This document shows, piece by piece, positions 11,400 through 42,270 of a stretch of 47,628 nucleotides of DNA. Every line of letters starts with the position of its first letter. The first letter of the stretch is position 1. The stretch spans positions 1-47,628 of the forward strand of contig JACPNF010000010.1 of assembly GCA_016185635.1 (NCBI GenBank), given 5' to 3'. This DNA is from Candidatus Woesearchaeota archaeon. GTDB taxonomy: Archaea; Nanobdellota; Nanobdellia; SCGC-AAA011-G17; JACPIM01. Made by a program: the position numbers and the translations under genes. The notes below the pieces were generated by a model. It was not told the DNA's origin, ran no database searches, and was given only the letters and a program-made list of their open reading frames with translations.

Positions 11400-14300
11400 A
11401 TAATTGATGTACATGAGCAGGTAGAAAAATTCAAGGATTTTTTAGACCAGAATTACAGGGAAAAAATAAATGAAATACTGTTAAAAGGAAAAAACTTTAT
11501 TTTGATTGATTTTTCTGACTTGCTAAAATTTGACCCTGAACTAGCTGACCAGATGCTTGATGATCCTGAGGAAAGCATCAAGGCTTTTGAATTATCCCTA
11601 GGAAATTTCGGAGTTGAAGGAATTTTAAGAGCAAGGTTCTTTAACCTGCCAGAAAGCCAGAAAATAAAAATAAAAGACATAAGGAGCGAGCATCTTGGGA
11701 AATTTTTGTATTTAGAGGGAATTGTCAGGCAGTCATCTGATGTAAGGCCTCAAGTTGTCAAAGCAAGGTTTGAATGCCCTTCATGCGGCAATGTTATTTC
11801 TATCCTGCAGGTTGATATTAAATTTAAAGAGCCGAGCAGATGCACATGCGGAAAAAGAGGAAAATTTAGATTGCTTGACAAAGAATTAGTTGATGCCCAG
11901 AGAATAATTATCGAAGAAAGCCCTGATAGTTTGGAGGGAGGAGAACAGCCAAAGAGATTGAGCATTTTTCTTAAAGAGGATTTAGTTGAACCTATTATGG
12001 AGAAAAAAACAACTCCTGGAAGCAAAGTAAGAGTAATAGGTGCTATAAAAGAAGTTCCTATTCCCTTGAAGAGCGGAGCACCAAGCACAAAATATGACTT
12101 AATGATGGAATCTAATTTTATTGAACCTTTAGAAGAAACTTTTGAAGAACTAGAAGTAAATAAAGAAGAAGAAAAAAAGATAATTGAATTAAGCAAAAAT
12201 CCTAAGGTTTATGAGAAATTTATTAACAGCATAGCCCCATCTATTTACGGACATTCTGATATTAAAGAAGCATTAGTTTTGCAATTAATGGGGGGAGTTA
12301 GAAAGGAAAGGAAGGATGGAACTTGGAACAGGGGGGATATCCATATTTTACTTGTAGGCGATCCTGGTTCAAGCAAATCAACATTATTATCATTTATTTC
12401 TAAAGTGGCTCCAAAAGCCAGATATGTTTCTGGCAAATCAGCTTCAGCAGCTGGTTTGACCGGAACAATTGTCAAAGATGAATTCTTGAAGGGGTGGGCT
12501 TTAGAAGGGGGAGCTTTAGCTCTTGCCAATGGGGGATTTGTGTGCTTACATCCAGATACAAGAGTAATTATTAACAATTCAATTAAGCCTATTAAAGACG
12601 TTTTTTGTGAGGATATTAAGAAAATAGGATATTTAAACGCAGAAAAAATAGAATCAAATCAAATTGAAAATTCTATAGAGAGTTTTAATGTAGATAAATT
12701 ACAAATTTCCAGGCAAACTACAAACTCCATTAGCAGGAAATTATACAAAGGAAAGCTTGTGCATTTAAAATTTAAATCTGGATTTGAAATAAAATTAACA
12801 CCCAATCATAAAATTATAGATGGCAATAATTTTGAATGGAAAGAAAGCCAATATTTCTCAAAAAATGATTTTGTTTTAGCACCGCTAAAGTTGTCTTCAC
12901 ATAACTCACAAGCATACTTCTTAGACATAATGCCTGAAAATTGGAAGATAGGGCTTGAAAAAGAAGATAAAGAATTTTTGAAAGAAGAATTAATCTTGAG
13001 ATTGGGTTCTCTTAAGGAGATTTACAAAAAGTTCAATATTGATAGGGATTATTTATCTGGCGGCAAACAGTTACAAATAAAAACTTTTAAGGAAATTTTA
13101 AATTTTTTAGGCATTTATGATGAATGGAAACATAAAACTTTTAGGTTTATAAGAAACAAAAATGGGGAAAAACTAAAAATAAATTCTTTTACTCCGGAGC
13201 TTTGTTATATACTAGGTTTTATTAGTGGTGATGGATATGTTAAATCAGCAGCCAGAAGAACAGTAGTTAATATAATTCAATCTATCAAGCATGAAGCATA
13301 TATAAACAAATTAGAAGAATGTTGGAATACTGTTTTTCAAAATAATGTACATAAATCCAAGCCCTTCCATTATACAAGTTCAATTAACGGCAAAATAGTT
13401 GAAAGTGATGCTATAACCTTAAGTCACTCAAGCAATCTTTTAGGCCAGTTATACTTTTACTTAAGGTATAATAATTTTGGAAATTTATTAACCTTATCAG
13501 ATGCATCCTTAAAAGCTTTTTTTGCAGGAGTAATTGATAGTGATGGCTGTATTTCTGATAAACATTCTGTTAAAAAAGGAAGAAATTATGTTGTAAAGCA
13601 TATTGATATTTTTTTGAGTAATAACACAATGGATAATCAAAATATTAGTTTAGCTTTGAGAAGATTTGATTGTTATTCCAAATTGATAAACCTAAAAAAT
13701 ATACAGTCTGTACAATTGACAGGAAGGGAAGATGTAAATACCTTTATTTTTAGTATTATGAAATATTCTGTAAAAGCACAAAATTCCATTTTAGTGCCTA
13801 TTAAAACAAGAATTTCGAGTATAAGCAACAAATTACCAAAGGGAATAGTTGCTAAATTATGTGAAAATATCTCTAGCATAAATAAATCAATTTTAGTTAA
13901 GAAAGGAATTTGGAGTACAATATACAATGCTAAAAAAATAAATCAACAACCATCCAGAACAAATTTGCTTTCAATAAAAGAAAAATTATCTGATTTTTTG
14001 TCCTTAGATAATCTAAATTTAATAAACAAGTTGCTTCAAAGGGATTTCTTTTTAGATCAAATAATTGAGATTAAAGAAGAAGATTATGAAGGTTATGTCT
14101 ATGATTTATATGTTCCCAAGTTACATAATTTTTTGGCTGGGGGAATTATTGTTCATAATTGTCTAGATGAACTCGACAAAATGGATGAAAATGATACAAG
14201 TGCATTGCATGAAGGACTTGAACAGCAGCAAATCAGTTTTAGCAAGGCAAACATTCAAGCAACATTATTAACAAGAGTAAGCGCTTTGGCAGCAGCAAAT

Positions 14301-15029
14301 CCAAAGTTAGGGAGGTTTGATCCTTACCAGCCAATTGCAGCACAAATCAATTTGCCGCCTGCGCTGATTAATAGGTTTGATTTAATATTTCCTATGAGGG
14401 ACATACCTAGCGAGGAATTAGACACAAAAATTGCATCTCATATCCTTGAAATGCATGGGAATAAAGATGAAATAGAACCAGAAATTAATGCCAAGCTTAT
14501 GAGAAAGTACATTTCTTATACTAAGAAAAAGATTTTTCCACAATTAACTGAAGGAGCAAAGGATGAAATAAGAAATTTCTATGTCAGCTTAAGAAACACT
14601 GGCGGGAGCAAGGATGATGTGAAACCAATTCCTATAAGCGCAAGGCAGCTTGAGGCATTGATAAGACTGAGCGAGGCATCTGCCAAGATAAGATTGAGCG
14701 AGAAAATTACAAAAGAAGATTCAAGAAGGGCCATAAGAGTATTGACAAAATGCTTACATGATGTAGGACTTGATCCTGAAACTGGAAAGATTGACATAGA
14801 CAGGATAGCAACAGGAATAAGCACTGCACAGAGAAGCAAAATAATTACTGTCAGGGAACTTATAAATGATTTTGACAAGAATGGAGTCAAGACAATTCCT
14901 ATAAATGATCTTATAAAAGCATGTGTTGAAAATGGACTTGAAGAATCAAAGGCTGAAGAAATTTTAGAAAAAATGACACGAGAAGGTGAAGTATTCCAGC
15001 CAAAAGTAGGATTTATCAGCAAGATTTAA
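11400..15029 (+). CDS. mcm: MCM replicative helicase, interrupted by one intein; start codon uncertain
   Basis: Zn finger CPSCG...CTCG, Walker A GDPGSSKS, Walker B CLDELDKM, arginine-finger region SRFDLIF-like (NRFDLIFPM), C-terminal wHTH. The track start (TTG 11502) truncates a conserved N-terminal helix that reads in frame from about 11400. Confidence 0.9.
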   Translation: MIDVHEQVEKFKDFLDQNYREKINEILLKGKNFILIDFSDLLKFDPELADQMLDDPEESIKAFELSLGNFGVEGILRARFFNLPESQKIKIKDIRSEHLGKFLYLEGIVRQSSDVRPQVVKARFECPSCGNVISILQVDIKFKEPSRCTCGKRGKFRLLDKELVDAQRIIIEESPDSLEGGEQPKRLSIFLKEDLVEPIMEKKTTPGSKVRVIGAIKEVPIPLKSGAPSTKYDLMMESNFIEPLEETFEELEVNKEEEKKIIELSKNPKVYEKFINSIAPSIYGHSDIKEALVLQLMGGVRKERKDGTWNRGDIHILLVGDPGSSKSTLLSFISKVAPKARYVSGKSASAAGLTGTIVKDEFLKGWALEGGALALANGGFVCLHPDTRVIINNSIKPIKDVFCEDIKKIGYLNAEKIESNQIENSIESFNVDKLQISRQTTNSISRKLYKGKLVHLKFKSGFEIKLTPNHKIIDGNNFEWKESQYFSKNDFVLAPLKLSSHNSQAYFLDIMPENWKIGLEKEDKEFLKEELILRLGSLKEIYKKFNIDRDYLSGGKQLQIKTFKEILNFLGIYDEWKHKTFRFIRNKNGEKLKINSFTPELCYILGFISGDGYVKSAARRTVVNIIQSIKHEAYINKLEECWNTVFQNNVHKSKPFHYTSSINGKIVESDAITLSHSSNLLGQLYFYLRYNNFGNLLTLSDASLKAFFAGVIDSDGCISDKHSVKKGRNYVVKHIDIFLSNNTMDNQNISLALRRFDCYSKLINLKNIQSVQLTGREDVNTFIFSIMKYSVKAQNSILVPIKTRISSISNKLPKGIVAKLCENISSINKSILVKKGIWSTIYNAKKINQQPSRTNLLSIKEKLSDFLSLDNLNLINKLLQRDFFLDQIIEIKEEDYEGYVYDLYVPKLHNFLAGGIIVHNCLDELDKMDENDTSALHEGLEQQQISFSKANIQATLLTRVSALAAANPKLGRFDPYQPIAAQINLPPALINRFDLIFPMRDIPSEELDTKIASHILEMHGNKDEIEPEINAKLMRKYISYTKKKIFPQLTEGAKDEIRNFYVSLRNTGGSKDDVKPIPISARQLEALIRLSEASAKIRLSEKITKEDSRRAIRVLTKCLHDVGLDPETGKIDIDRIATGISTAQRSKIITVRELINDFDKNGVKTIPINDLIKACVENGLEESKAEEILEKMTREGEVFQPKVGFISKI
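12543..14159 (+). mobile_element. MCM intein (539 aa) with LAGLIDADG homing endonuclease domain
   Basis: Starts CLHPDTRVI (block A). TPNH (block B). LAGLIDADG motifs LGFISGDGYV and FAGVIDSDGCI. Ends GGIIVHN, followed by +1 Cys. Removing it restores GGFV|CLDELDKM. Confidence 0.9.
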
Positions 15030-23559: not shown

Positions 23560-25275
23560 GTGGTTGATGCAATAGACTTAGCAAAAAAACAAAGAGAAAT
23601 TTCTGTTTCTGAATTTTTTGCAAAAAATCGGCACCTTTTAGGATTTGACAGCCCTGCAAAAGCAATATTAATGGCTGTAAAAGAGTGTGCAGATAATTCT
23701 CTTGATGCATCAGAGGAAATAAGGGTTTTACCAGAAATTTATGTAGAAGTCAAGCAACTTTCTGAGAACAGGTTTAAAGTTATAGTTGAGGATAATGGTC
23801 CTGGAATTGTAAAAGAACAGATTCCAAAAGTTTTTGCAAAATTATTATACGGAAGCAAGTTTCATTCCTTGAAAATGTCACGCGGACAGCAAGGTATCGG
23901 CGTTAGTGCGGTTGTATTATATTCACAATTAACTACTGGAAAACCTGCAGTGATTACTTCTAAAACAGGACCAAAACAAAAAGCGCATCTTTATTGGTTG
24001 CACATCAACACCACAAAAAATGAACCTGAAATTGTAAAAGAGGATAGCATAGACTGGAATAAAGACCATGGCACTAGGGTTGAAGTAGAACTTGAAGGAA
24101 AATACCAGAAAGGAAAACAAAGTATTGATGAATATTTAAAACAATGCGCAATTGTAAACCCCCATGCTAAGATTATTTATATTAATCCCCTGAATGAAAA
24201 AGTAGAATATCCAAGAGCAACTACTGAGTTACCTAAAGAAGCTGTAGAGATCAAGCCACACCCATATGGTATTGAACTAGGAATTTTAATTAAAATGCTA
24301 AAAAGCACTGAGTCAAGGAACCTTAGCTCTTTTTTGCAAAATGATTTCTCAAGAATAAGCTCTGTTACTGCAAAAGAAATCTGCGATAAGGCTAATTTAG
24401 ACGGTAAATTAAAACCAGAAGAAATAGACCTGGCTAAATCAGAAAATCTGTTTAAGGCAATGCAAAACACAAAAATTATTGCACCTCAGACTAACTGCAT
24501 CAGCCCAATTGGGGAAGAGTTATTAATTAAAGGATTAAAAAAAGAGATAAATGCTGATTTTTATACTGCTGTATCCAGAAGCCCTGTAGTTTACAGAGGC
24601 AGGCCTTTTAGCATAGAAATTAGCTGCGCTTATGGTGGAGATATTGAAAAAGAAGGACAGGTAAGGCTTATGAGATTTGCAAACAGAGTTCCTTTATTGT
24701 ATCAGCAAGGAGCCTGCGCAATTACGAGCAGTGTCCAGGAAACTAATTGGAGACCTTATGGGCTGCAGCAAAGCACGGGGTCTATGCCTTATGGACCAAT
24801 TATACTTATTGTTCATATGGCCTCTGTATGGGTGCCTTTTACTTCTGAGAGCAAGGATGCAATAGCTCACTATGATGAAATAATAAAAGAAATAAAATTA
24901 GGGCTGCAGGAATGCGGAAGAAGGCTTGGAATTTTTATAAGAAAGAATGTAAAAGCAAAGGAACAAAAAGAAAAAATTGACTTGTTTGAGAAATATATCC
25001 CTGAACTGGCTTCTTCATTAAATAAATTAACTGGAGAAAAAGCAAATATTTTAGAAACTGAGCTTAAAAAAATCCTGCAAAAAAACATGAAAGATTTGTT
25101 AAGCACTATTGAAAACAAAGAAATAAAAGAAGAAATAAGGCAGGATATCCAAGACCAAGTAAATAACAAAAGGCCAGAGAAAAAAACTACAGTTAAAATT
25201 GAAAAACAAACAACTTTATTACAAGATAAATCAAAAAATAAAAAGTCCAGCAAAAATAAAATTCACAAAAAATGA
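23560..25275 (+). CDS. top6B: DNA topoisomerase VI subunit B
   Basis: GHKL/Bergerat fold motifs: ECADNSLDA, EDNGPGI, GSKFH..SRGQQGIG. Transducer domain. GTG start. Lys-rich tail. Confidence 0.9.
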   Translation: MVDAIDLAKKQREISVSEFFAKNRHLLGFDSPAKAILMAVKECADNSLDASEEIRVLPEIYVEVKQLSENRFKVIVEDNGPGIVKEQIPKVFAKLLYGSKFHSLKMSRGQQGIGVSAVVLYSQLTTGKPAVITSKTGPKQKAHLYWLHINTTKNEPEIVKEDSIDWNKDHGTRVEVELEGKYQKGKQSIDEYLKQCAIVNPHAKIIYINPLNEKVEYPRATTELPKEAVEIKPHPYGIELGILIKMLKSTESRNLSSFLQNDFSRISSVTAKEICDKANLDGKLKPEEIDLAKSENLFKAMQNTKIIAPQTNCISPIGEELLIKGLKKEINADFYTAVSRSPVVYRGRPFSIEISCAYGGDIEKEGQVRLMRFANRVPLLYQQGACAITSSVQETNWRPYGLQQSTGSMPYGPIILIVHMASVWVPFTSESKDAIAHYDEIIKEIKLGLQECGRRLGIFIRKNVKAKEQKEKIDLFEKYIPELASSLNKLTGEKANILETELKKILQKNMKDLLSTIENKEIKEEIRQDIQDQVNNKRPEKKTTVKIEKQTTLLQDKSKNKKSSKNKIHKK

Positions 25276-32248: not shown

Positions 32249-33430
32249 ATGACAAAAAAAGAGAATAAACTCCAAAAAACCTACAAATTCAGATTATATC
32301 CAAATAAAAGCCAGGGATTTAAATTATTAGAAACTTTAGAACTTTGCAGACAAACTTACAATATCCTGCTAAGTGAATTAAATAACCAAAAAGTAATAGA
32401 CAAGTCAATAATTCAGGGAACAATTCCAGATATTAAAATATGCGAACCTAAATTCAAGAGATTATATTCAAAAACAATGCAGTATGAAAGTTACAGATTG
32501 TTTAGTAATTTACACACTTTAGTACAATTAAAGAAAAAAGGAAAAAAAGTAGGTTCATTAAGGTTTAAATCAAAAAAGTCATTTAAGTCAATAACTTACA
32601 ACCAGTCTGGCTTCAATTTAATAAAAACAGGAAAAAGGTATCAGACTTTGCATTTATCTAAGATAGGAGAAATTCCGGTAAGAGCTTATAGAGATATAGA
32701 AGGAAAAATAAAACAAATAGCAATCAAGATAACTAATTCAGGAAAATGGTTTGCCAACATAACAGCTGAATCTGGAAAACAAAATAAAAAGTTAGTCAAT
32801 AGCAAGCAGGTAGGAATAGATCTGGGCTTGACAAATTATGTCTATGACAGTGATAATAATCACTTTGACAATCCTAAATATCTAAACAATTCATTAAATA
32901 AACTAAAAAAACTGCAGAGAAAATTATCAAGAAAGCAGAAAGGAAGTAATAACAGGAACAAGCAAAGATTAAAAGTGACTAAACTGCATGAAACAATAGA
33001 AAACCAAAGAAATGATTTTCTCCATAAATTAAGCAGGTACTACATTAACAATTATAATTTGATAGCAGTAGAAAACCTGCAAATACAAAACATGATCAAA
33101 AATAGATTTTTATCAAGGTCAATTTCAGATTCATCATGGGCTAAATTTATTAAAATGCTTGAATACAAGGCTGAAAGCGCTGGTATCCAAGTAATAAAAG
33201 TAAATCCAAGAGGAACAACACAAAAATGCAGCAATTGTAATACAATAGTTAAAAAAAGTTTGAAAGACAGGGAGCATATATGCCCTTGTGGTTTGCATAT
33301 TCATAGAGACTACAATTCAGCTTTAAAAGTATTAAAAGATGCTACCGTAGGAAGTACGGGAAGTAACGTCTGGGGAAATGTTTCAGCAGAAACGTCAATG
33401 AACCAGAAATTCCAAGGCATTAATACTTAG
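32249..33430 (+). CDS. tnpB: TnpB (OrfB) RNA-guided endonuclease-type transposon protein
   Basis: KTYKFRLYPNKSQ N-terminus. RuvC residues in VGIDLGL, IAVENLQ and HRDYNSALKV. Zn finger CSNCN...CPCG. Confidence 0.85.
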   Translation: MTKKENKLQKTYKFRLYPNKSQGFKLLETLELCRQTYNILLSELNNQKVIDKSIIQGTIPDIKICEPKFKRLYSKTMQYESYRLFSNLHTLVQLKKKGKKVGSLRFKSKKSFKSITYNQSGFNLIKTGKRYQTLHLSKIGEIPVRAYRDIEGKIKQIAIKITNSGKWFANITAESGKQNKKLVNSKQVGIDLGLTNYVYDSDNNHFDNPKYLNNSLNKLKKLQRKLSRKQKGSNNRNKQRLKVTKLHETIENQRNDFLHKLSRYYINNYNLIAVENLQIQNMIKNRFLSRSISDSSWAKFIKMLEYKAESAGIQVIKVNPRGTTQKCSNCNTIVKKSLKDREHICPCGLHIHRDYNSALKVLKDATVGSTGSNVWGNVSAETSMNQKFQGINT

Positions 33431-34410: not shown

Positions 34411-34429
34411 AAGGAGAAAAATGGAAGCC

Positions 34430-34510
34430 AAAGAAGCCTTTTTAAAAAAAGCCTTCAGGGAAAAACTTTGAAAGAAGCATTTTTAAAAAAGCCTTCAGCA
34501 CAAACTTTTG
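34430..34510. repeat. tandem duplication (41 + 40 nt, about 85% identical) in the CDC48 leader
   Basis: aaagaagcctttttaaaaaaagccttcagggaaaaactttg / aaagaagcatttttaaaaaagccttcagcacaaacttttg. Confidence 0.85.
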
Positions 34511-34551: not shown

Positions 34552-37500
34552 ATGGAAGCCAAATTAAAAGTCATGGAAGCCTTGCAGGAAGAGGCTTACA
34601 AAGGAATAGTTAGAGTAGACAGCCAGACAATGAGGCAAATTGATGTAAAGCCTGGCAGTGTTGTAGAAATTGAAGGTGGGAGAATTACTGTTGGTATTGT
34701 TGACAGAGCATATCCTACTGATATTGGTCAGGGAATTATCAGAATGGATGGTTTAGTAAGAAGAAATGCAAAGACTGGAATTGGAGAAGTTGTAAAGGTA
34801 AGAAAATCTGACATAAAAGAAGCAAAAACAATTTCAATTGCTCCTGCACAAAAAGGGGTCATGATACAAGCTGATCCTGATGTTTTCAGAAAAGGGTTAT
34901 TGGGAAGAGCTGTTGTAAAAGGAGATATTGTTGCATTAGGCGGAACAAGAACAAGAAGAAGGACAATGGCAGGAAGCCCATTTGAGGATATTTTTGATGT
35001 TTTTGAACAAGGTTTTATGGGAAACTTTGGTTTTGGAGGGTTAAGATTTATTGTTGTTGATGCAAATCCTAAACAGCCTGTTATAATTACTGAGACAACA
35101 GAAATAAAAGTTAATCCAAAAGCTGTTGAAGTTTCTGAAGAGTTGGCTCCTGATGTAACTTATGAGGATATAGGTGGGCTAAGCGATGAGATTAAAAAAA
35201 TAAGAGAAATGGTAGAATTGCCTTTGAAGCATCCTGAGATTTTTGAAAGGCTTGGAATTGAGGCCCCTAAAGGGGTATTGCTTCATGGAGTTCCTGGAAC
35301 TGGAAAAACTTTGCTTGCGAAGGCTGTAGCAAATGAAACTGAAGCTAACTTTTTACTTATTAATGGGCCAGAGGTAACTTGTTTAACTGGAGATACTGAA
35401 GTTTTAACAAACCCTAATGGAAGAGTAAAGGTACAAGAATTATTTAATGAAACAGAAAAAAACGGGGACATAGTAAGAAAAGATGACTTCAAAGAAATTG
35501 TAATTCCTAAACAAAAAATAAAACTGTTTTCTTTAAATGAAGATTTAAAGATTGTTCCAGATGAGATTGAAGCAATTACAAAATCTTATGCTCCTGAAAT
35601 TTATGAAATAAAAACAAAGAAAAAAGGATTACATAAAACTTCAAGAAATCATCCCTTTGCAACATTAAGCGAAGAAGGAAAAATTATTTGGAAAACTGCA
35701 AAAGAACTAAAAAGAAGGGATAAAATAGTTGTAGCTCCGAAATTAAATTTAATTAATAAGGATTCTTATTCAGAAAAGGATTTAGCTCAGATAGAACTTG
35801 AAGAAGATGAAATAGAAAAAATTGAAAAAAAAGAAGGACAAACAGTTTATGATATCTCTATGAAAACTTATCATAACTTTTTTGCAGGTTCTCCTTTAAC
35901 CTTATTGAGCAATTCTAAATTTTACGGTGAATGTGTTACAGAGGATACTGAAGTATTTACAAATCCAAAAGGCCCAAAAAAAATTAAAGAAATAAATGAA
36001 GGAGATAAAGTTTTTGTTTTGGATGAAAAAACAAAGCATTTTACAAAGTCCATAGTTAAATCCAAAATATTTAGTGGTGATAAAAAAGTCTATAAACTAG
36101 AAGCTGGAGGGAAAGAAATTGAAGCTTCGGATAATCACCCATTTTTAAAGTTGAAAGAAGATAACTCAACTGGCTGGCTGCCTTTGGGGGAATTAAAGAT
36201 TGGGGATTCTGTTTGTGTTGCTCAAGACGTCCCAATAAATAATATAAATAATAAAGTACCTAAATTAAATTTTGCCAGAATAAACAAAATAGAATTTACA
36301 GGAATTAAACCAACTTATGATATTGAAATAGAAGATCATCATAATTTTATTGCTAATGGGTTTATAGTTCATAATTCTGAAAAAAGAATCAGGGAGATTT
36401 TTGAAGAAGCTGAGAAGAATGCGCCAAGCATTATTTTTATAGATGAGATAGATGCTATTGCCCCTAAGAGAGAAGAAACATATGGTGAAGTTGAGAGAAG
36501 AATGGTCGCGCAGTTGTTATGTTTAGATAAAGATACTAAGGTTTATTTGCCAGACAAGTTTGTAAAAATTAAGGATTTATTTGATAATACTAACGGAGAA
36601 GAATTTAAGGATGAATTTGGGGTTCTACATAAAATCCCAGAAAAAGACATTTTAGTTCAGGGTCTTGACAAAGATGGGAAATTAACAAATTCAAGAATTA
36701 TTTCTTTAACTAAAACCAATATTCCAGAAGCTTATAAAATAAAATTAGATAATGGGGGATTTTTAAAAACTTCAAAAATAACAAAATTTTTAGTAGTTAA
36801 TAATGATGGAATAAACTGGATTACTGCAAATGAATTAAAAGAAGGGCAATATGTTCTTGTACCAAAGAAGATAGATTTTGACAGCAAAATACATAAAATA
36901 GATTTATTTAGGTTAAATAATAAGAATAAATGGGTATTGAAATTACCTAAAGATGGCCTTTTGAATAAGTTATTTAACAGAAATTATGCTTTTTTGAACG
37001 AGGTATATGATTTACTAAAAAATAAAAAGATTGAAAATAAAAATAATACTTTAAGAATTTCTATATTAAATCTACTATTAGAAAAAAAAGAATGTACAAA
37101 AAAAGAATTGCAGGATTTACTTGGTATAAGCAGAAAAAGTTTGAATAATGCTTTAAGAGTTATTGAAAAAGATTTAATTTCAGTTTTTGAAGATTACTCA
37201 AAAGTAAAATTAAATATTAATATTAATAATTCTTTAATTAAAGAGGTAAATCAAATAGCTTTTAAGAGTGATTCAATAATTTACCCAATAAAAGAAAAAT
37301 ATTTTACTTACATACCTAAAGTATTAGATGAAAAATTTGCCAAATTTTTAGGTTTATTAATAACTGACGGGCATATACATTATGATTATGTAAATGTAAG
37401 CGGAGAAACAGCCTTTATTGCTCAAAATAACCTTAATGATGTAATTAATATAAAAAGTAGAACAAGTAAATTAAGAGGCCTTGATAGACTGGACATTTAT

Positions 37501-40500
37501 TCTACAGCTTTAGCGCAATTTATTAGTGATTATTTTAAGATACCTCAAGGAAAGAAAAGCAAAATAGTAAGGATTCCTGAAGAGATATTTAGCTCAGCTT
37601 TACCTGTTAGGGCAGCTTTTGTAGCCGGTCTTATGGAAGGCGATGGGGGAGCTAGCGAGAAAATATCTATTGGTAGTACAAGCAAGGCTTTGATCGAGGA
37701 CACAGTAAAATTATTATTATCATTAGGTATCTTATCATATCATAAAAAATATGATAATACAAATCATGTAATTGTACATGGTGGTTATGATTCTGCTTAC
37801 AGATTTTTTTCACTTATCTATCCATATATGGAACTTGAAAGAAAAAAAGAAGATATTCAGAATTTAACAAACAAAATAAGAAGAGTATCTACAATTTCTT
37901 ATCCGATAAAAGAAAGGCTTTATGGTATAAGAAAAGAAAACAATATAAGATTAAATGATAATATGTACAGGTATTTATCTCCAAATACTAATTACTGCGT
38001 TAATTCTAAGGTGTTAGGATATTTTATTCAACAGATAGGTAGCATAGAAAATGAATTTGTACAGGAAATACAGAGATTATATAATTCTGATTTAATTCCC
38101 TGTAGGATTAAAAGTATAGAAAAAGTAGAAAATAAAGAACCGATGTATGACTTAACAACAACTAATTCAAACTTCCTTGCAGGAGAGATTCCTGTTTTGG
38201 TTCACAATACCACAATGGATGGATTAAAATCAAGAGGAAAAGTAGTAGTAATCGGGGCAAGTGTTACTGGTGATACTCCAATTATGATAAAAGATGAAAA
38301 TGGAATTAAAATCTTGCCAATAGGGAAATTTATAGATAAATATTATAAAGAAGGTGAAGAAAATGTTGAAAAAAATGTCGATAATATTTACGCTTTGGGA
38401 TTTGATAAAAAAGAAATAAATAACACATTTAATCAGACTTATTTTAATAACAGTGCTTTCAAAAAAATTAGAAGTGTATTTAGACATAAAGTAAATGAAA
38501 TTTATGAAGTAGAATATGTTGGTGGAAAAATAAGAACAACAGGTAATCATTCTGTTTTTGTTAGGACTAAACAAGGGCTCAAATATAAGCCAGTTACATT
38601 ATTAAAACCAGGAGAAATTTTAGTTGACTTACCTTATAAAGTAAATTCTCATATTCAAAAAATACATGAATTCCCTATGAGTTTAAGTTTAGAATTGCCA
38701 GTTCATAATATTCCATTAATAGAAAAATGTTATGACCAAGCTCTTCATGGAGTAAGTACAAATTTAATCTCAATTGAATCTAACAAACATAGCTCAACTA
38801 TTAATAGATGGAAAAGGGAGGAATATATTCCAGAAGAATTATCAAATAATTATTGGCATCTCCTTCCAAGCACAATAAAAGCTGCACCAGAACTAATGAG
38901 ATTATTAGGTTATTATACTGCAGAAGGTTATGCAAGAGACGAAGTAGACTTTTGTTTTGGAACACATGAAAAGGAATTAATTAAAGATTTAATAAAAATT
39001 ATGAAAAAAATATTTAATGTAGAACCTTCAAATGTAAAAATTACTGGCTCAAGGACTAATATTATATATAATATTAAACCATTAGCGAATTTCTTTAGCA
39101 GACATTGTGGAAAAGGAGCTTATAATAAACATCTTCCTTCGTTTATTTTTGAAGCTCCAAGAGAATATTTCTTGGAATTTGTAAATGGTTATTTTGCCGG
39201 TGATGGTTATAAATTTAATGATGGAAAATTACAAGTTACTTCAGTAAGCGAACAAATTATAATCGAATTAAATTGGCTTTTGAGGATGCATGGTATAAAA
39301 AGTCATCTTTCCAAAACAATAGCTAAAGCAGGAAGAAAAATAGGAAACAATACTATATGTAAAGATTCGATTGGATATAGGGTTAATATACCAAAAACAG
39401 CAAACCCTTTTGTTCAAAATAAAGTATTAAATGCAAAGAGAGCGAGAATAAAGTCAATTACAAAATTGCCTTTCAATGATTACGTATATGATTTATGCGG
39501 TTGCGACAATGAAGCTTTTTTCGGAGGTAAAACACCTATTTTGTTACATAATACAAATCGTGTTAATTCTTTAGACCCTGCATTAAGGAGACCTGGAAGA
39601 TTTGACAGGGAAATTGAAATTAGAGTTCCGGACAAACATGGAAGATTAAACATTTTAAAAATACATACAAGAAGCATGCCTCTAACAAAAGATGTTGACT
39701 TAGAAAAACTTGCTGCAATAACTCATGGTTTTGTCGGCGCCGACTTAGCAGCATTATGCAAAGAGGCAGCCATGAATATTATAAGAAAAATACTGCCTGA
39801 ATTAAACATAAAAGAAAATGAGCCATTGCCAAAAGAAATTTTAGATAAACTAAGAATAACAGGAAATGATTTCAAGGAAGCATTAAAGGTTGTAAGACCA
39901 AGTGCAATGAGAGAAGTGCTAGTTGAAGCTCCCAATGTCAAATGGAAAGATATAGGCGGATTAGAAGATTTAAAACAAGATTTAAAAGAAGCTGTTGAAT
40001 GGCCTTTAAAATATCCAACTGCTTTTACAAAATTAGGAATAAAGCCTCCAAAAGGAATTTTAATGTACGGTCCGCCTGGTTCTGGAAAGACATTGCTTGC
40101 AAAGGCTGTTGCAAATGAAAGTGAAGCAAATTTTATCTCAATAAAAGGGCCTGAACTTATAAGCCATTGGATGGGAGATTCTTTGCCTTATGATGAAAAA
40201 ATAATAGTTAAAAAAAACGGCAAAGTTAAATTTATGAAGATAGGGGATATAGTTGAAAACAAAGAAAATGTCCAGGTACTATCATTTGATAAAGAAAAAA
40301 GAGTAAGGTTTACCAACTTAAGGGACCATATAAAACATCCCTTAAGAGGCAAACTACTTGAAGTGACTACAAGAACTGGAAGAAAAATCAAGGTTACAGA
40401 TTATCATTCTTTATTTTCTTTTTTAAATGGCAAGTTTACAGATGTTCCTGTGAGCCATTTGATCCCTAATGAGAGTTATATAGCCATACCTAGAAATCTG

Positions 40501-42270
40501 AACTTACCTAGAGAAACTTTAGATTCAATAAATCTTTACGATTATTTCAAAGAAGATCAGGATGTTTTTGTTAGCAATGTTAAAGATTACTTAACAAGAG
40601 CAAAACTAATCTTAAGTTTAAACAAAACAGCAAATATTTTAGGAATTTCAAAAAAATATTTGGCAGATATTATAGGCAAAGATTTACCAGTTTCTATAAC
40701 CAAATTTGACAAATTAATAAAAGAAGCTAAATTAGCATTGAAATTTGAAGAAATAAAAATTAAATTAAAAGGAAGCATACATGAATATAACTCCATATTT
40801 GCGGTAAACAAAGACTTTTGGAGATTAGTCGGATTATGGGTGGCTGAAGGAGATTTAAATGGTTATACAGTAAGGTTACATAATCAAAATAAAGAAATCA
40901 GAGAAGACATGCATAAGATTTGCCAAGATTTGGGATTTAAAATTTCTTCTAGTGAAAACTCATTTGCAATTTGTTCTTTATTTTTGCAGAAAATATTCAA
41001 GAAGGTTCTTAATTTAGAAACAGGAGCTGAAAACAAAAAAATACCAGAAATACTATTTACTTTAGATAAAGAAAGCAAAGCTAATTTTTTGAAAGGATAT
41101 TTTAGCGGTGATGGAAGCAACTACCCTGCCGCAAGGGGCAAATTTCAAATAGAGGCCAGCACTATAAGCGACGAATTAGCAAATGGTTTGCTGTATTTAC
41201 TGTTAGATTTTGGCATAGTAGCAACAAGATATGATAAAAAAGAAAGAACTGGAAGTATATCAAAAAGAATAAGCATTCTTGGAGTAAAGAATTTTGAAAA
41301 ATTCAAGGATGCAGGGTTTATAGATAAAAAAAGAAATGATAGAATAGGGCAGTATATTAAATCAAGAAAATGGTTCAGGTCTGATTTAATACCTCTTACT
41401 GGCGAACTTTATAATTTAGTTACAGAAAATAATTCATCCTATGATGAGAGTATAAATACAGTCTGCAAAGAGAAACTAAAACAAATTTTAATTTATGTTG
41501 ATAAAGACAAAAGCTTGTATAAGGACTATTGGGATTTAGTTGACGGAGATATTTTCTTTGATAGAGTCAAAGAAATTAAGGAGTTGCCTAGCGAAGATTA
41601 TGTTTATGACATTTCAGTTCCAGGAGAAGAAAATTTTGTTGCAGGCTTTGGCGGTGTTTTAGCCCATAACAGCGAAAAGGGAATTCGCAAGGTTTTTGAG
41701 AGAGCAAGACAAGCTGCACCTTCAATAATCTTTTTTGACGAGATAGATGCAATTGCAAGCGCAAGAGGGATGGACATAGGAAACAAAGTTACGGAGAGAA
41801 TGGTTAACCAATTATTAACTGAAATGGACGGACTTGAAGAATTAACAGATGTGGTAGTTATAGGAAGTACGAATCGTCCTGATCTTCTTGACCCTGCCTT
41901 GCTAAGACCTGGAAGATTTGACAGGATTATATCAACTAACATACCTGAAATGCAGTCAAGAGAAAAAATATTTGAAATTCATACAAAAGAAATGCCTTTA
42001 GCAAAAGATGTTGACATTAAAAAACTTGTAGACCAGACAGTTGGATTTGTGGGCGCTGACATTGAGGGCTTGTGCAGGGAAGCAGGATTATTGGCATTAA
42101 GAGAAGACATAAAAACAACTGAAGTAAAGATGAAGCATTTTGAGCAGGCTCTTGAAAAGATCAAGCCATCTATCACCCCAGAGCAGTCAAAGAAGTATAA
42201 AGAAATAGAAGAGACTTACTTAAGAAGAGCAAAGGCTGGAATAGAAAGATCACCGAGCTATTTGGGTTAA
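34552..42270 (+). CDS. cdc48: CDC48/VCP-type double-ring AAA+ ATPase interrupted by five inteins
   Basis: N-domain. D1: [29 protein letters not shown]2: [28 protein letters not shown]. Joined exteins total 755 aa and read as a contiguous CDC48. Confidence 0.95.
35380..35913 (+). mobile_element. CDC48 intein 1: mini-intein (178 aa), Cys1, ends ...LLSN, +1 Ser
   Basis: CLTGDTEVL (block A), TSRNHPF (block B), [15 protein letters not shown] (block F/G-like). Flanks GPEVT | SKFYGE. Confidence 0.8.
35932..36375 (+). mobile_element. CDC48 intein 2: mini-intein (148 aa), Cys1, ends IVHN, +1 Ser
   Basis: [37 protein letters not shown]. Flanks SKFYGE | SEKRIREIF. Confidence 0.9.
36520..38208 (+). mobile_element. 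CDC48 intein 3: large intein (563 aa) with LAGLIDADG endonuclease and an HTH-like insert
   Basis: [19 protein letters not shown] and [33 protein letters not shown], +1 Thr. Flanks AQLL | TTMDGL. Confidence 0.85.
38260..39552 (+). mobile_element. CDC48 intein 4: large intein (431 aa), Ser1, LAGLIDADG endonuclease
   Basis: [28 protein letters not shown] and [34 protein letters not shown], +1 Thr. Flanks VVIGA | [18 protein letters not shown]. Confidence 0.85.
40180..41670 (+). mobile_element. CDC48 intein 5 (D2 domain): large intein (497 aa), Ser1, LAGLIDADG endonuclease
   Basis: [29 protein letters not shown] and [33 protein letters not shown], +1 Ser. Flanks SHWMGD | SEKGIRKVF. Confidence 0.85.

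Follow-up and report, generated by a model that had tools for sequence, protein, structure and literature searches.

A Woesearchaeota CDC48 gene interrupted by five inteins

The CDC48 locus and its five intervening sequences

The gene described here encodes a CDC48/VAT-type unfoldase of the AAA+ family, and lies on contig JACPNF010000010.1 of a Candidatus Woesearchaeota archaeon (assembly GCA_016185635.1), analysed over a stretch of 47,628 nucleotides (nt), hereafter referred to as the window. The CDC48 open reading frame (ORF) is the only long ORF at its position (Table 1). Its 2,572 codons correspond to a precursor of ∼292 kDa, in which six extein segments (labeled E1 to E6) are separated by five inteins (int1 to int5), with junctions that I placed by locating ten junction strings in the ORF translation. 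The inteins add up to 1,817 amino acids (aa) and the exteins to 755 aa, the latter corresponding to a predicted mature CDC48 of ∼84 kDa. A reading of this stretch made from its letters and translations only (the sequence-only reading) had proposed the five junctions, the five intein lengths and their sum, all of which are reproduced exactly by the junction mapping; its estimate that about 71% of the ORF is intein agrees with the computed 70.6%. It had further described the remainder as an uninterrupted CDC48 and attributed paired LAGLIDADG motifs to three of the inteins, and both statements hold in the analyses below.

The spliced extein has VAT from Thermoplasma (5g4f) as its best match in the PDB, to which it aligns in a single stretch over residues 5–738 (E 3.5e-240); at all five junctions this alignment is free of gaps and duplications. 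Pfam analysis identified CDC48_N (88 bits), CDC48_2 (39 bits), two copies of AAA (324) and two copies of AAA_lid_3 (116). The complete architecture of the CDC48/VAT/p97 type II AAA+ proteins is therefore present, with the double-psi-barrel and beta-clam N domains followed by two AAA modules (D1 and D2), each with Walker A and B motifs, sensor 1, arginine fingers and lid. In VAT, pore loop 1 consists of Tyr264/Tyr265 in nucleotide-binding domain (NBD) 1 and of Trp541/Val542 in NBD2 (PMC5423775), and an aromatic pore loop 1 is found in both rings of the window protein, as SKFYGE in D1 and as HWMGD, aligned to W541-V542, in D2. The reading frame is intact over all 2,572 codons, in DNA with a guanine plus cytosine (G+C) content of ∼30%, which excludes chance as the source of this arrangement.

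Table 1. Position of the CDC48 gene, its exteins and inteins, and other features of the window.
Feature	Coordinates	Strand	Details
CDC48/VAT precursor ORF	34552..42270	+	2,572 aa
E1	34552..35379	+	extein aa 1–276; CDC48 N domains and start of D1
D1 Walker A	35287-35310	+	GVPGTGKT, in E1
int1	35380-35913	+	aa 277–454; 178-aa mini-intein; GPEVT/S; extein site 276
E2	35914..35931	+	six codons, SKFYGE; D1 pore loop 1, aligns to VAT K263-Y264-Y265-G266
int2	35932-36375	+	aa 461–608; 148-aa mini-intein; YGE/SEK; site 282
E3	36376..36519	+	48 aa; contains D1 Walker B
D1 Walker B	36430-36453	+	IIFIDEID, in E3
int3	36520-38208	+	aa 657–1219; 563 aa; AQLL/T; site 330
int3 block B	36769-36789	+	TSKITKF
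int3 LAGLIDADG pair	37345-37371, 37621-37647	+	FLGLLITDG, VAGLMEGDG
E4	38209..38259	+	17 aa
int4	38260-39552	+	aa 1237–1667; 431 aa; VIGA/TNR; site 347
int4 LAGLIDADG pair	38902-38928, 39181-39207	+	LLGYYTAEG, VNGYFAGDG
E5	39553..40179	+	209 aa; D1 sensor 1, Arg fingers, D1 lid, D1–D2 linker, D2 Walker A, D2 pore loop
D2 Walker A	40069-40092	+	in E5
D2 pore loop	40162-40179	+	SHWMGD, in E5
int5	40180-41670	+	aa 1877–2373; 497 aa; WMGD/SEK; site 556 (D2 paralogue of site 282)
int5 LAGLIDADG pair	40825-40851, 41089-41115	+	LVGLWVAEG, LKGYFSGDG
E6	41671..42270	+	199 aa and stop; D2 Walker B, sensor 1, Arg fingers, lid, C-terminal tail
D2 Walker B	41725-41748	+	in E6
MCM gene	11502-15029	+	
MCM intein	12543-14159	+	539 aa; GGFV/CLHPDT...IIVHN/CLDELDKM
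Topoisomerase VI B gene	23560-25275		571 aa
TnpB/IS605 OrfB-like ORF	32249-33430	+	OrfB_IS605 and Cas12f1-like TNB domains

All five inserts exceed the Pfam cut-off for the Intein_splicing family (PF14890, 35.8 bits), with 55.2 bits for int1, 66.1 for int2, 63.7 for int3, 43.9 for int4 and 86.9 for int5. All of them also match inteins of solved structure, among them Pho CDC21-1, Mja TFIIB, Pab PolII, Ssp/Npu DnaB, Mtu RecA, PI-PkoII and VMA; the matches include the inteins 6rpp, 5o9j and 2lcj for int1, the DnaB and RecA mini-inteins for int2, and PI-PkoII for both int4 and int5 (E 5e-32 for the latter). Three of the five, int3, int4 and int5, pass the cut-off for LAGLIDADG_3 (PF14528, 22.5 bits) with 42.2, 45.5 and 68.3 bits respectively, and in each of these both LAGLIDADG motifs retain an acidic residue followed by Gly, so that they are likely to be active homing endonucleases, as predicted from these motifs. 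No LAGLIDADG motif or endonuclease was found in int1 or int2.

The first residue is Cys in int1, int2 and int3, and Ser in int4 and int5. The last residue is Asn in all five, within the C-terminal ends LLSN, IVHN, LVHN, LLHN and LAHN of int1 to int5, and is followed by Ser at position +1 for int1, int2 and int5, and by Thr for int3 and int4. Asp occupies block position F:4 in every case. This set of residues (Cys1 or Ser1, terminal Asn, +1 Ser or Thr, F:4 Asp) fits the four-step pathway of class 1 splicing (PMC4031507).

Two positions deviate from the canonical pattern. The penultimate His (G:6) is found in int2 to int5 and is replaced by Ser in int1, an ending of the LLSN/LVSN type that is common to five relatives (L001, L007, L087, P0003, L089); functional inteins devoid of the penultimate His have been documented (PMC4031507). 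The block B signature Thr/Ser-x-x-His is present in four of the five inteins (SRNH in int1, SDNH in int2, TGNH in int4, TDYH in int5). In the block B of int3, Ser is found at B:7 and Thr at B:10, without a His, as an alignment with the inteins of Pho RadA and of VMA confirms. This appears to be a property of the family, as an alignment of int3 with the other inteins at extein site 330 (those of P0006, P0012, P0018–P0021, P0026, P0028, P0057 and P0069) has Thr or Gln at B:10 in 11 of 11 members, with Ser at B:7 and a conserved Lys or Arg next.

The block-B His is described as the most conserved intein residue, and the sole functional intein lacking it that is named in a 2014 review is Tko CDC21-1 (PMC4031507). 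By that review's account, the Thermococcus kodakarensis intein splices with a compensating Lys (Tori et al., 2012). The int3 family shares the missing B:10 His with it, but is a distinct intein family in a different host, comprising at least 11 diverged members with Thr or Gln at this position, for which splicing is predicted. Since the deviations of int1 and int3 are conserved within their respective families, and the gene is otherwise constrained, both inteins probably splice despite their non-canonical residues.

Mapped on the VAT alignment, the six-residue extein between int1 and int2 is the D1 pore loop, which places these two inteins 18 nt apart. A second pair, int3 and int4, is separated by 51 nt (17 residues), with int3 located between the D1 Walker B and sensor 1, and int4 directly preceding the sensor-1 Asn of D1. 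The remaining intein, int5, begins immediately after HWMGD, the pore loop of D2. Each intein thus cuts a core AAA+ element, none of which could form before splicing, and it is a reasonable inference that CDC48 function would need all five excisions. All of these positions belong to the best-conserved regions of the ATPase. Homing endonucleases usually target conserved sites, and selfish inteins generally sit in conserved motifs.

Distribution and relationships of the inteins

The neighbours of CDC48 in the window, which include MCM, topoisomerase VI B and family B DNA polymerase genes, are archaeal. When the first 276 aa of the protein were used to scan the species representatives of GTDB, the matches were almost only metagenome-assembled genomes of Woesearchaeota/Nanoarchaeota, of the DPANN archaea (named for Diapherotrites, Parvarchaeota, Aenigmarchaeota, Nanoarchaeota and Nanohaloarchaeota), with a best identity of 89%; in JGI/ENA metagenome contigs the best identity was 90%. 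No contig above 90%, and therefore no independent assembly of this allele, was found in either scan, nor was the exact 2,572-aa protein found in the protein collection.

A syntenic metagenome contig (JGI Ga0209541_10005460, hereafter L001) carries topoisomerase VI B/A, TopA, a RadA-like gene, CDC48, an M24 peptidase, family B DNA polymerase and a Ser hydrolase. Its CDC48 contains int1 and int5 only, and in the BLASTN alignment it runs uninterrupted through the positions that int2, int3 and int4 occupy in the window gene, all three of which are empty. The presence of these empty sites in a syntenic orthologue demonstrates that the insertions are precise.

I then mapped inteins in 75 long homologues, 80 GTDB loci and 80 metagenome loci, by a custom spliced alignment in which long insertions are free. 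This replaced the chaining of extein matches from phmmer and BLAST, which missed the exteins of 6, 17 and 48 aa and mixed D1 with D2. At least 10 sites are used across the CDC48 family, which in extein coordinates are 249 and 526 (the two Walker A motifs), the paralogous D1/D2 pairs 276/550, 282/556 and 347/622, and sites 330 and 573. For each of the five sites of the window gene (276, 282, 330, 347 and 556), public data contain further DPANN CDC48 genes with an intein at that position, including those from metagenomes, where they are common, and tandem pairs at 276 and 282 appear repeatedly, in numerous assemblies independent of one another. Within the closest clade, the window gene alone has site 330 occupied.

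Relatives sharing at least 83% extein identity with the window gene carry different subsets of inteins: sites 276 and 556 are filled in L001/P0001, sites 276, 347 and 556 in L007/P0002, sites 282, 556 and 622 in L006, sites 276 (with a full-length intein) and 556 in P0003, and site 276 only in L089. Most Woesearchaeal orthologues are ∼755 aa long and intein-free. The highest count in any other CDC48 found is four (P0006). This allele, those with three inteins (L006, L007/P0002) and the one with two (L001/P0001) have the host protein, the sites and homologous inteins in common with the window gene, but none carries all five.

Many Woesearchaeal CDC48 genes (L010, L026, L044, L048, L057 and others) also possess variable insertions that are not inteins, at extein positions ∼391–399 and ∼666–678. 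These comprise 66–237 aa after 'MPL' in the D1 lid, and ∼50 aa in the D2 lid; the window gene has neither.

For int1, int4 and int5, the identity to homologous inteins at the same site in relatives is 87–93%. The copy of int1 in L001 is 93% identical, and over its N-terminal 123 aa int1 is 82% identical to the 503-aa intein at site 276 of P0003, indicating that int1 is a derivative without the endonuclease. The int2 lineage (147–148 aa) is found at the D1 site 282 in the window gene and L006, and at the D2 site 556 in L007/P0002, with 68–71% identity throughout. The L007/P0002 copy of int4 is 87% identical, and inteins at the paralogous D2 site 622 are 50–57% identical to it; for int5, the corresponding values are 87% for the L001 copy and 36–40% for the SLPY-type inteins at the D1 site 282. 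These comparisons show that paralogous positions in the two ATPase rings, D1 and D2, house members of related intein lineages. Non-allelic movement of inteins is treated as very rare in the literature (PMC1635734).

Several more specific proposals on the origin of int2 and on movement between the rings were rejected. Its derivation by deletion from the 492-aa 'CV..IVHN' inteins of site 282 finds only a weak C-terminal similarity. Ectopic homing through DNA likeness of sites 282 and 556 would have to operate on flanks of 21 nt each side that share only 19 of 42 bases in the window gene. As for co-conversion of D2-like flanks beside int2, the flank is orthologous to the D1 of L001, and the extension of the BLAST match into the D2 of L004 reflects D1/D2 paralogy only.

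In codon-level comparisons, the ratio of non-synonymous to synonymous substitution rates (dN/dS) is 0.04–0.11 for the exteins, and 0.09–0.17 when int1, int2, int4 and int5 are each compared with the nearest copy at the same site; int3 has no relative close enough for such a comparison. The exteins and these four inteins are thus under purifying selection. The dS of the shared inteins is lower than that of the exteins flanking them, with 0.44 against 0.86 for int1 compared to L001, 0.60 against 1.36–2.18 for int5 compared to L001, and 0.43 against 1.04–1.57 for int4 compared to L007. This difference fits an exchange of inteins after the host genes had diverged, and suggests recent lateral transfer among Woesearchaeal lineages, of an uncertain effect size as dS is near saturation.

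Inteins are also present in two proteins with a Peptidase_M41/FtsH domain (P0071, P0083), at AAA positions equivalent to the CDC48 D2 sites 558, 573 and 622. The intein of P0071 at site 622 is 49.5% identical to int4, so that the int4 family crosses between AAA+ subfamilies.

Proposed splicing of the precursor and alternative explanations

I consider it very probable that this locus is a Woesearchaeota CDC48/VAT-type unfoldase gene that has been colonised by five independent inteins, and that its joined exteins give an 84-kDa CDC48. The whole gene would be translated into one precursor, in which each intein would act as a HINT-fold, single-turnover enzyme and leave the chain through the four class 1 steps. 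An acyl shift at the first residue (Cys1 or Ser1) would be followed by transesterification onto the Ser or Thr at +1; the C-terminal Asn would then cyclise, and a final acyl shift would complete the reaction. The five excisions would unite the six extein pieces into a mature protein that is expected to be active. The endonucleases of int3, int4 and int5 could copy their inteins into empty alleles, by means of a double-strand break that is subsequently repaired, while int1 and int2 have lost the endonuclease and persist as mini-inteins.

Some observations weigh against this interpretation. The five-intein combination rests on a single assembly; canonical chemistry is not guaranteed for int1, with its Ser in place of the penultimate His, nor for int3, which has no block-B His; and int3 shares only 47% identity with its nearest relative, a metagenome scan with int3 having returned no close one. 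A first alternative proposal is that the allele is an assembly chimera, formed when co-occurring strains that differ in their inteins were fused at extein sequence common to them. Two metagenome series each yielded related alleles with differing subsets (Ga0209541: L001 and L087; Ga0209542: L004 and L086), the relative similarity of the window gene to L001 and to L004 shifts along its length, and no second assembly of the five-intein allele was recovered in the protein, GTDB and metagenome searches. Such a join could in principle be hosted by E3 (144 nt) or E5 (627 nt). However, the spacing within the int1/int2 and int3/int4 pairs is such that each pair would be linked by single reads or k-mers, and all known relatives differ by at least 10% in nucleotides, which makes long shared exact k-mers unlikely. 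There are no long internal repeats either, the sole substantial one being the D1/D2 paralogy (71% identical over 161 nt), and the reading frame remains intact throughout the ORF. Independent examples of a four-intein allele (P0006) and of tandem pairs, the latter numerous, are also known. I regard a chimera as very unlikely.

The unusual residues of int1 and int3 could instead mean that at least one intein, most plausibly one of these two, no longer splices, and that the ORF is a decaying or non-functional CDC48 whose work is done by a paralogue; with only 47 kb of the genome visible, a second CDC48 may be located elsewhere. I find this highly improbable, because the substitutions are family traits (at B:10 in the whole site-330 family, and at the LLSN/LVSN end in five relatives) and not private lesions, and functional inteins are known with each deviation (PMC4031507). 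A frame that is intact over 7.7 kb of such G+C-poor DNA, the low dN/dS of the exteins, and a gene order shared with the relatives, whose CDC48 appears to be orthologous, are likewise at odds with decay. A different proposal accepts splicing, and holds that some of the inteins are kept as conditional switches (responding for instance to redox state, metals or temperature) that gate the assembly of the pore loop or ATPase, and thereby exert post-translational control over the unfoldase. The location of the inteins in the pore loop, at sensor 1 and near catalytic elements would suit such a role, as would the persistence, under purifying selection, of two mini-inteins without endonuclease, and other inteins have been documented to splice conditionally (for example PMC7360933). 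Most Woesearchaeal CDC48 genes are nevertheless intein-free, and close relatives differ in the sites that are filled, which fits parasitic gain and loss better than a fixed regulator; placement in conserved motifs is moreover the general rule for selfish inteins. A regulatory role is therefore unlikely, and the colonisation of a functional CDC48 gene by five self-splicing inteins is the interpretation retained here.

Comparison with other multi-intein genes, and neighbouring features

Five inteins in a single gene are rare, but neither unique nor a record. The sequence-only reading had mentioned genes with three or four inteins but none with five, a statement that is out of date. The Prp8 protein of Anaeramoeba ignava has been reported to contain five, the earlier maximum being four, for which Trichodesmium ribonucleotide reductase and archaeal MCMs were cited (Gallot-Lavallee et al., 2023, PMC10710043). 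As in the window gene, these five inteins are in one essential and highly conserved protein. Prp8 is however a spliceosome factor of a eukaryote, and the window gene encodes an archaeal AAA+ unfoldase with two intein pairs 6 and 17 residues apart. Anaeramoeba also has a CDC48 intein, which shows weak similarity to inteins at orthologous prokaryotic sites (PMC10710043).

The four-intein genes, namely Trichodesmium ribonucleotide reductase (Liu et al., 2003) and the archaeal MCM/CDC21 with its sites a–d (PMC10643990), resemble the window CDC48 in having independent inteins in a conserved ATPase or catalytic core, a presence that is polymorphic between strains, and closely spaced target sites. 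The window gene differs from these by one additional intein, by its host protein, and by its DPANN lineage, which is barely covered by published intein surveys; two DPANN genomes were among those of one survey, which reported no multi-intein gene from them (PMC10643990).

A profile of the five N-terminal splicing regions was searched against 1.84 billion representative proteins, and the best 150 matches were inspected. Among these is a T4-like phage portal protein of 2,599 aa (P0135) with six inteins (residues 77–234, 295–640, 730–1164, 1190–1427, 1480–1850 and 1914–2325), which make up 75% of it, a count that exceeds any published case found. The same protein is present in P0242 and P0243, amounting to three independent assemblies, and its endonucleases are in part HNH and in part LAGLIDADG. 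The same 150 matches include a bacterial DnaE of 2,788 aa (P0150) with five inteins, two of which are separated by six residues as in the window CDC48, and a Patescibacteria giant repeat protein of 5,631 aa (P0102, NCBI MFZ5366523.1) with five intein-like units ending in HN/T. These polypeptides carry as many inteins as the window CDC48 or more, but have phage or bacterial hosts, are other host proteins, and include endonucleases of the HNH type. Among the archaeal proteins and CDC48 genes examined, including those within the best 150 profile matches, five is the maximum.

The window gene is consequently an extreme but ordinary-in-kind case of known intein colonisation, and changes no principle of intein biology. 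It is conceivable, although I would sooner doubt it than assert it, that it is the most intein-laden archaeal gene yet seen, with a pore loop built by two adjacent splicings, an undescribed His-independent family in int3, and repeated ectopic D1/D2 movement within one gene.

Its interest lies in the extreme load borne by an essential protein, in which parasitic sequence makes up more than 70% of the coding region, and the pore loop that grips the substrate is encoded as a six-residue island between two inteins. This illustrates how far colonisation can go in DPANN, a group almost absent from published intein surveys. Such a precursor offers a natural system for studying multi-intein folding, the order of splicing and the interference between neighbouring inteins, and its compact mini-inteins of 148 and 178 aa, along with a possible His-independent intein family, may provide parts for protein engineering. 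For specialists, the points of interest are the pore-loop island, the sharing of sites between D1 and D2, the family without block-B His, and the heavy burden of inteins on CDC48 genes of DPANN archaea, most of which is unpublished.

The MCM gene of the window contains one intein, inserted inside its Walker B, bringing the total to six inteins in two genes. A further intein polymorphism in this lineage concerns topoisomerase VI B, for which the orthologue in L002 (1–811; 1,087-aa product) contains an intein that the window gene does not have. Scans of the window for transfer RNA genes and Rfam families returned nothing relevant.

The TnpB-like ORF is located ∼1.1 kb upstream of CDC48. At this position L001 has a PDDEXK gene and small ORFs instead, and the TnpB-like ORF therefore looks like a lineage-specific insertion. 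Closer to the gene, the first 12 nt of the CDC48 ORF (ATGGAAGCCAAA) are duplicated 131 nt upstream, at 34421, where they open a mini-ORF of 16 codons. Between this duplicate and the CDC48 start (34421–34500 region) are two copies of a ∼22-nt motif (GCMTTTTTAAAAAA(A)GCCTTCAG) with TATA-like cores, and the duplicated start and motif may together represent a promoter or leader duplication.

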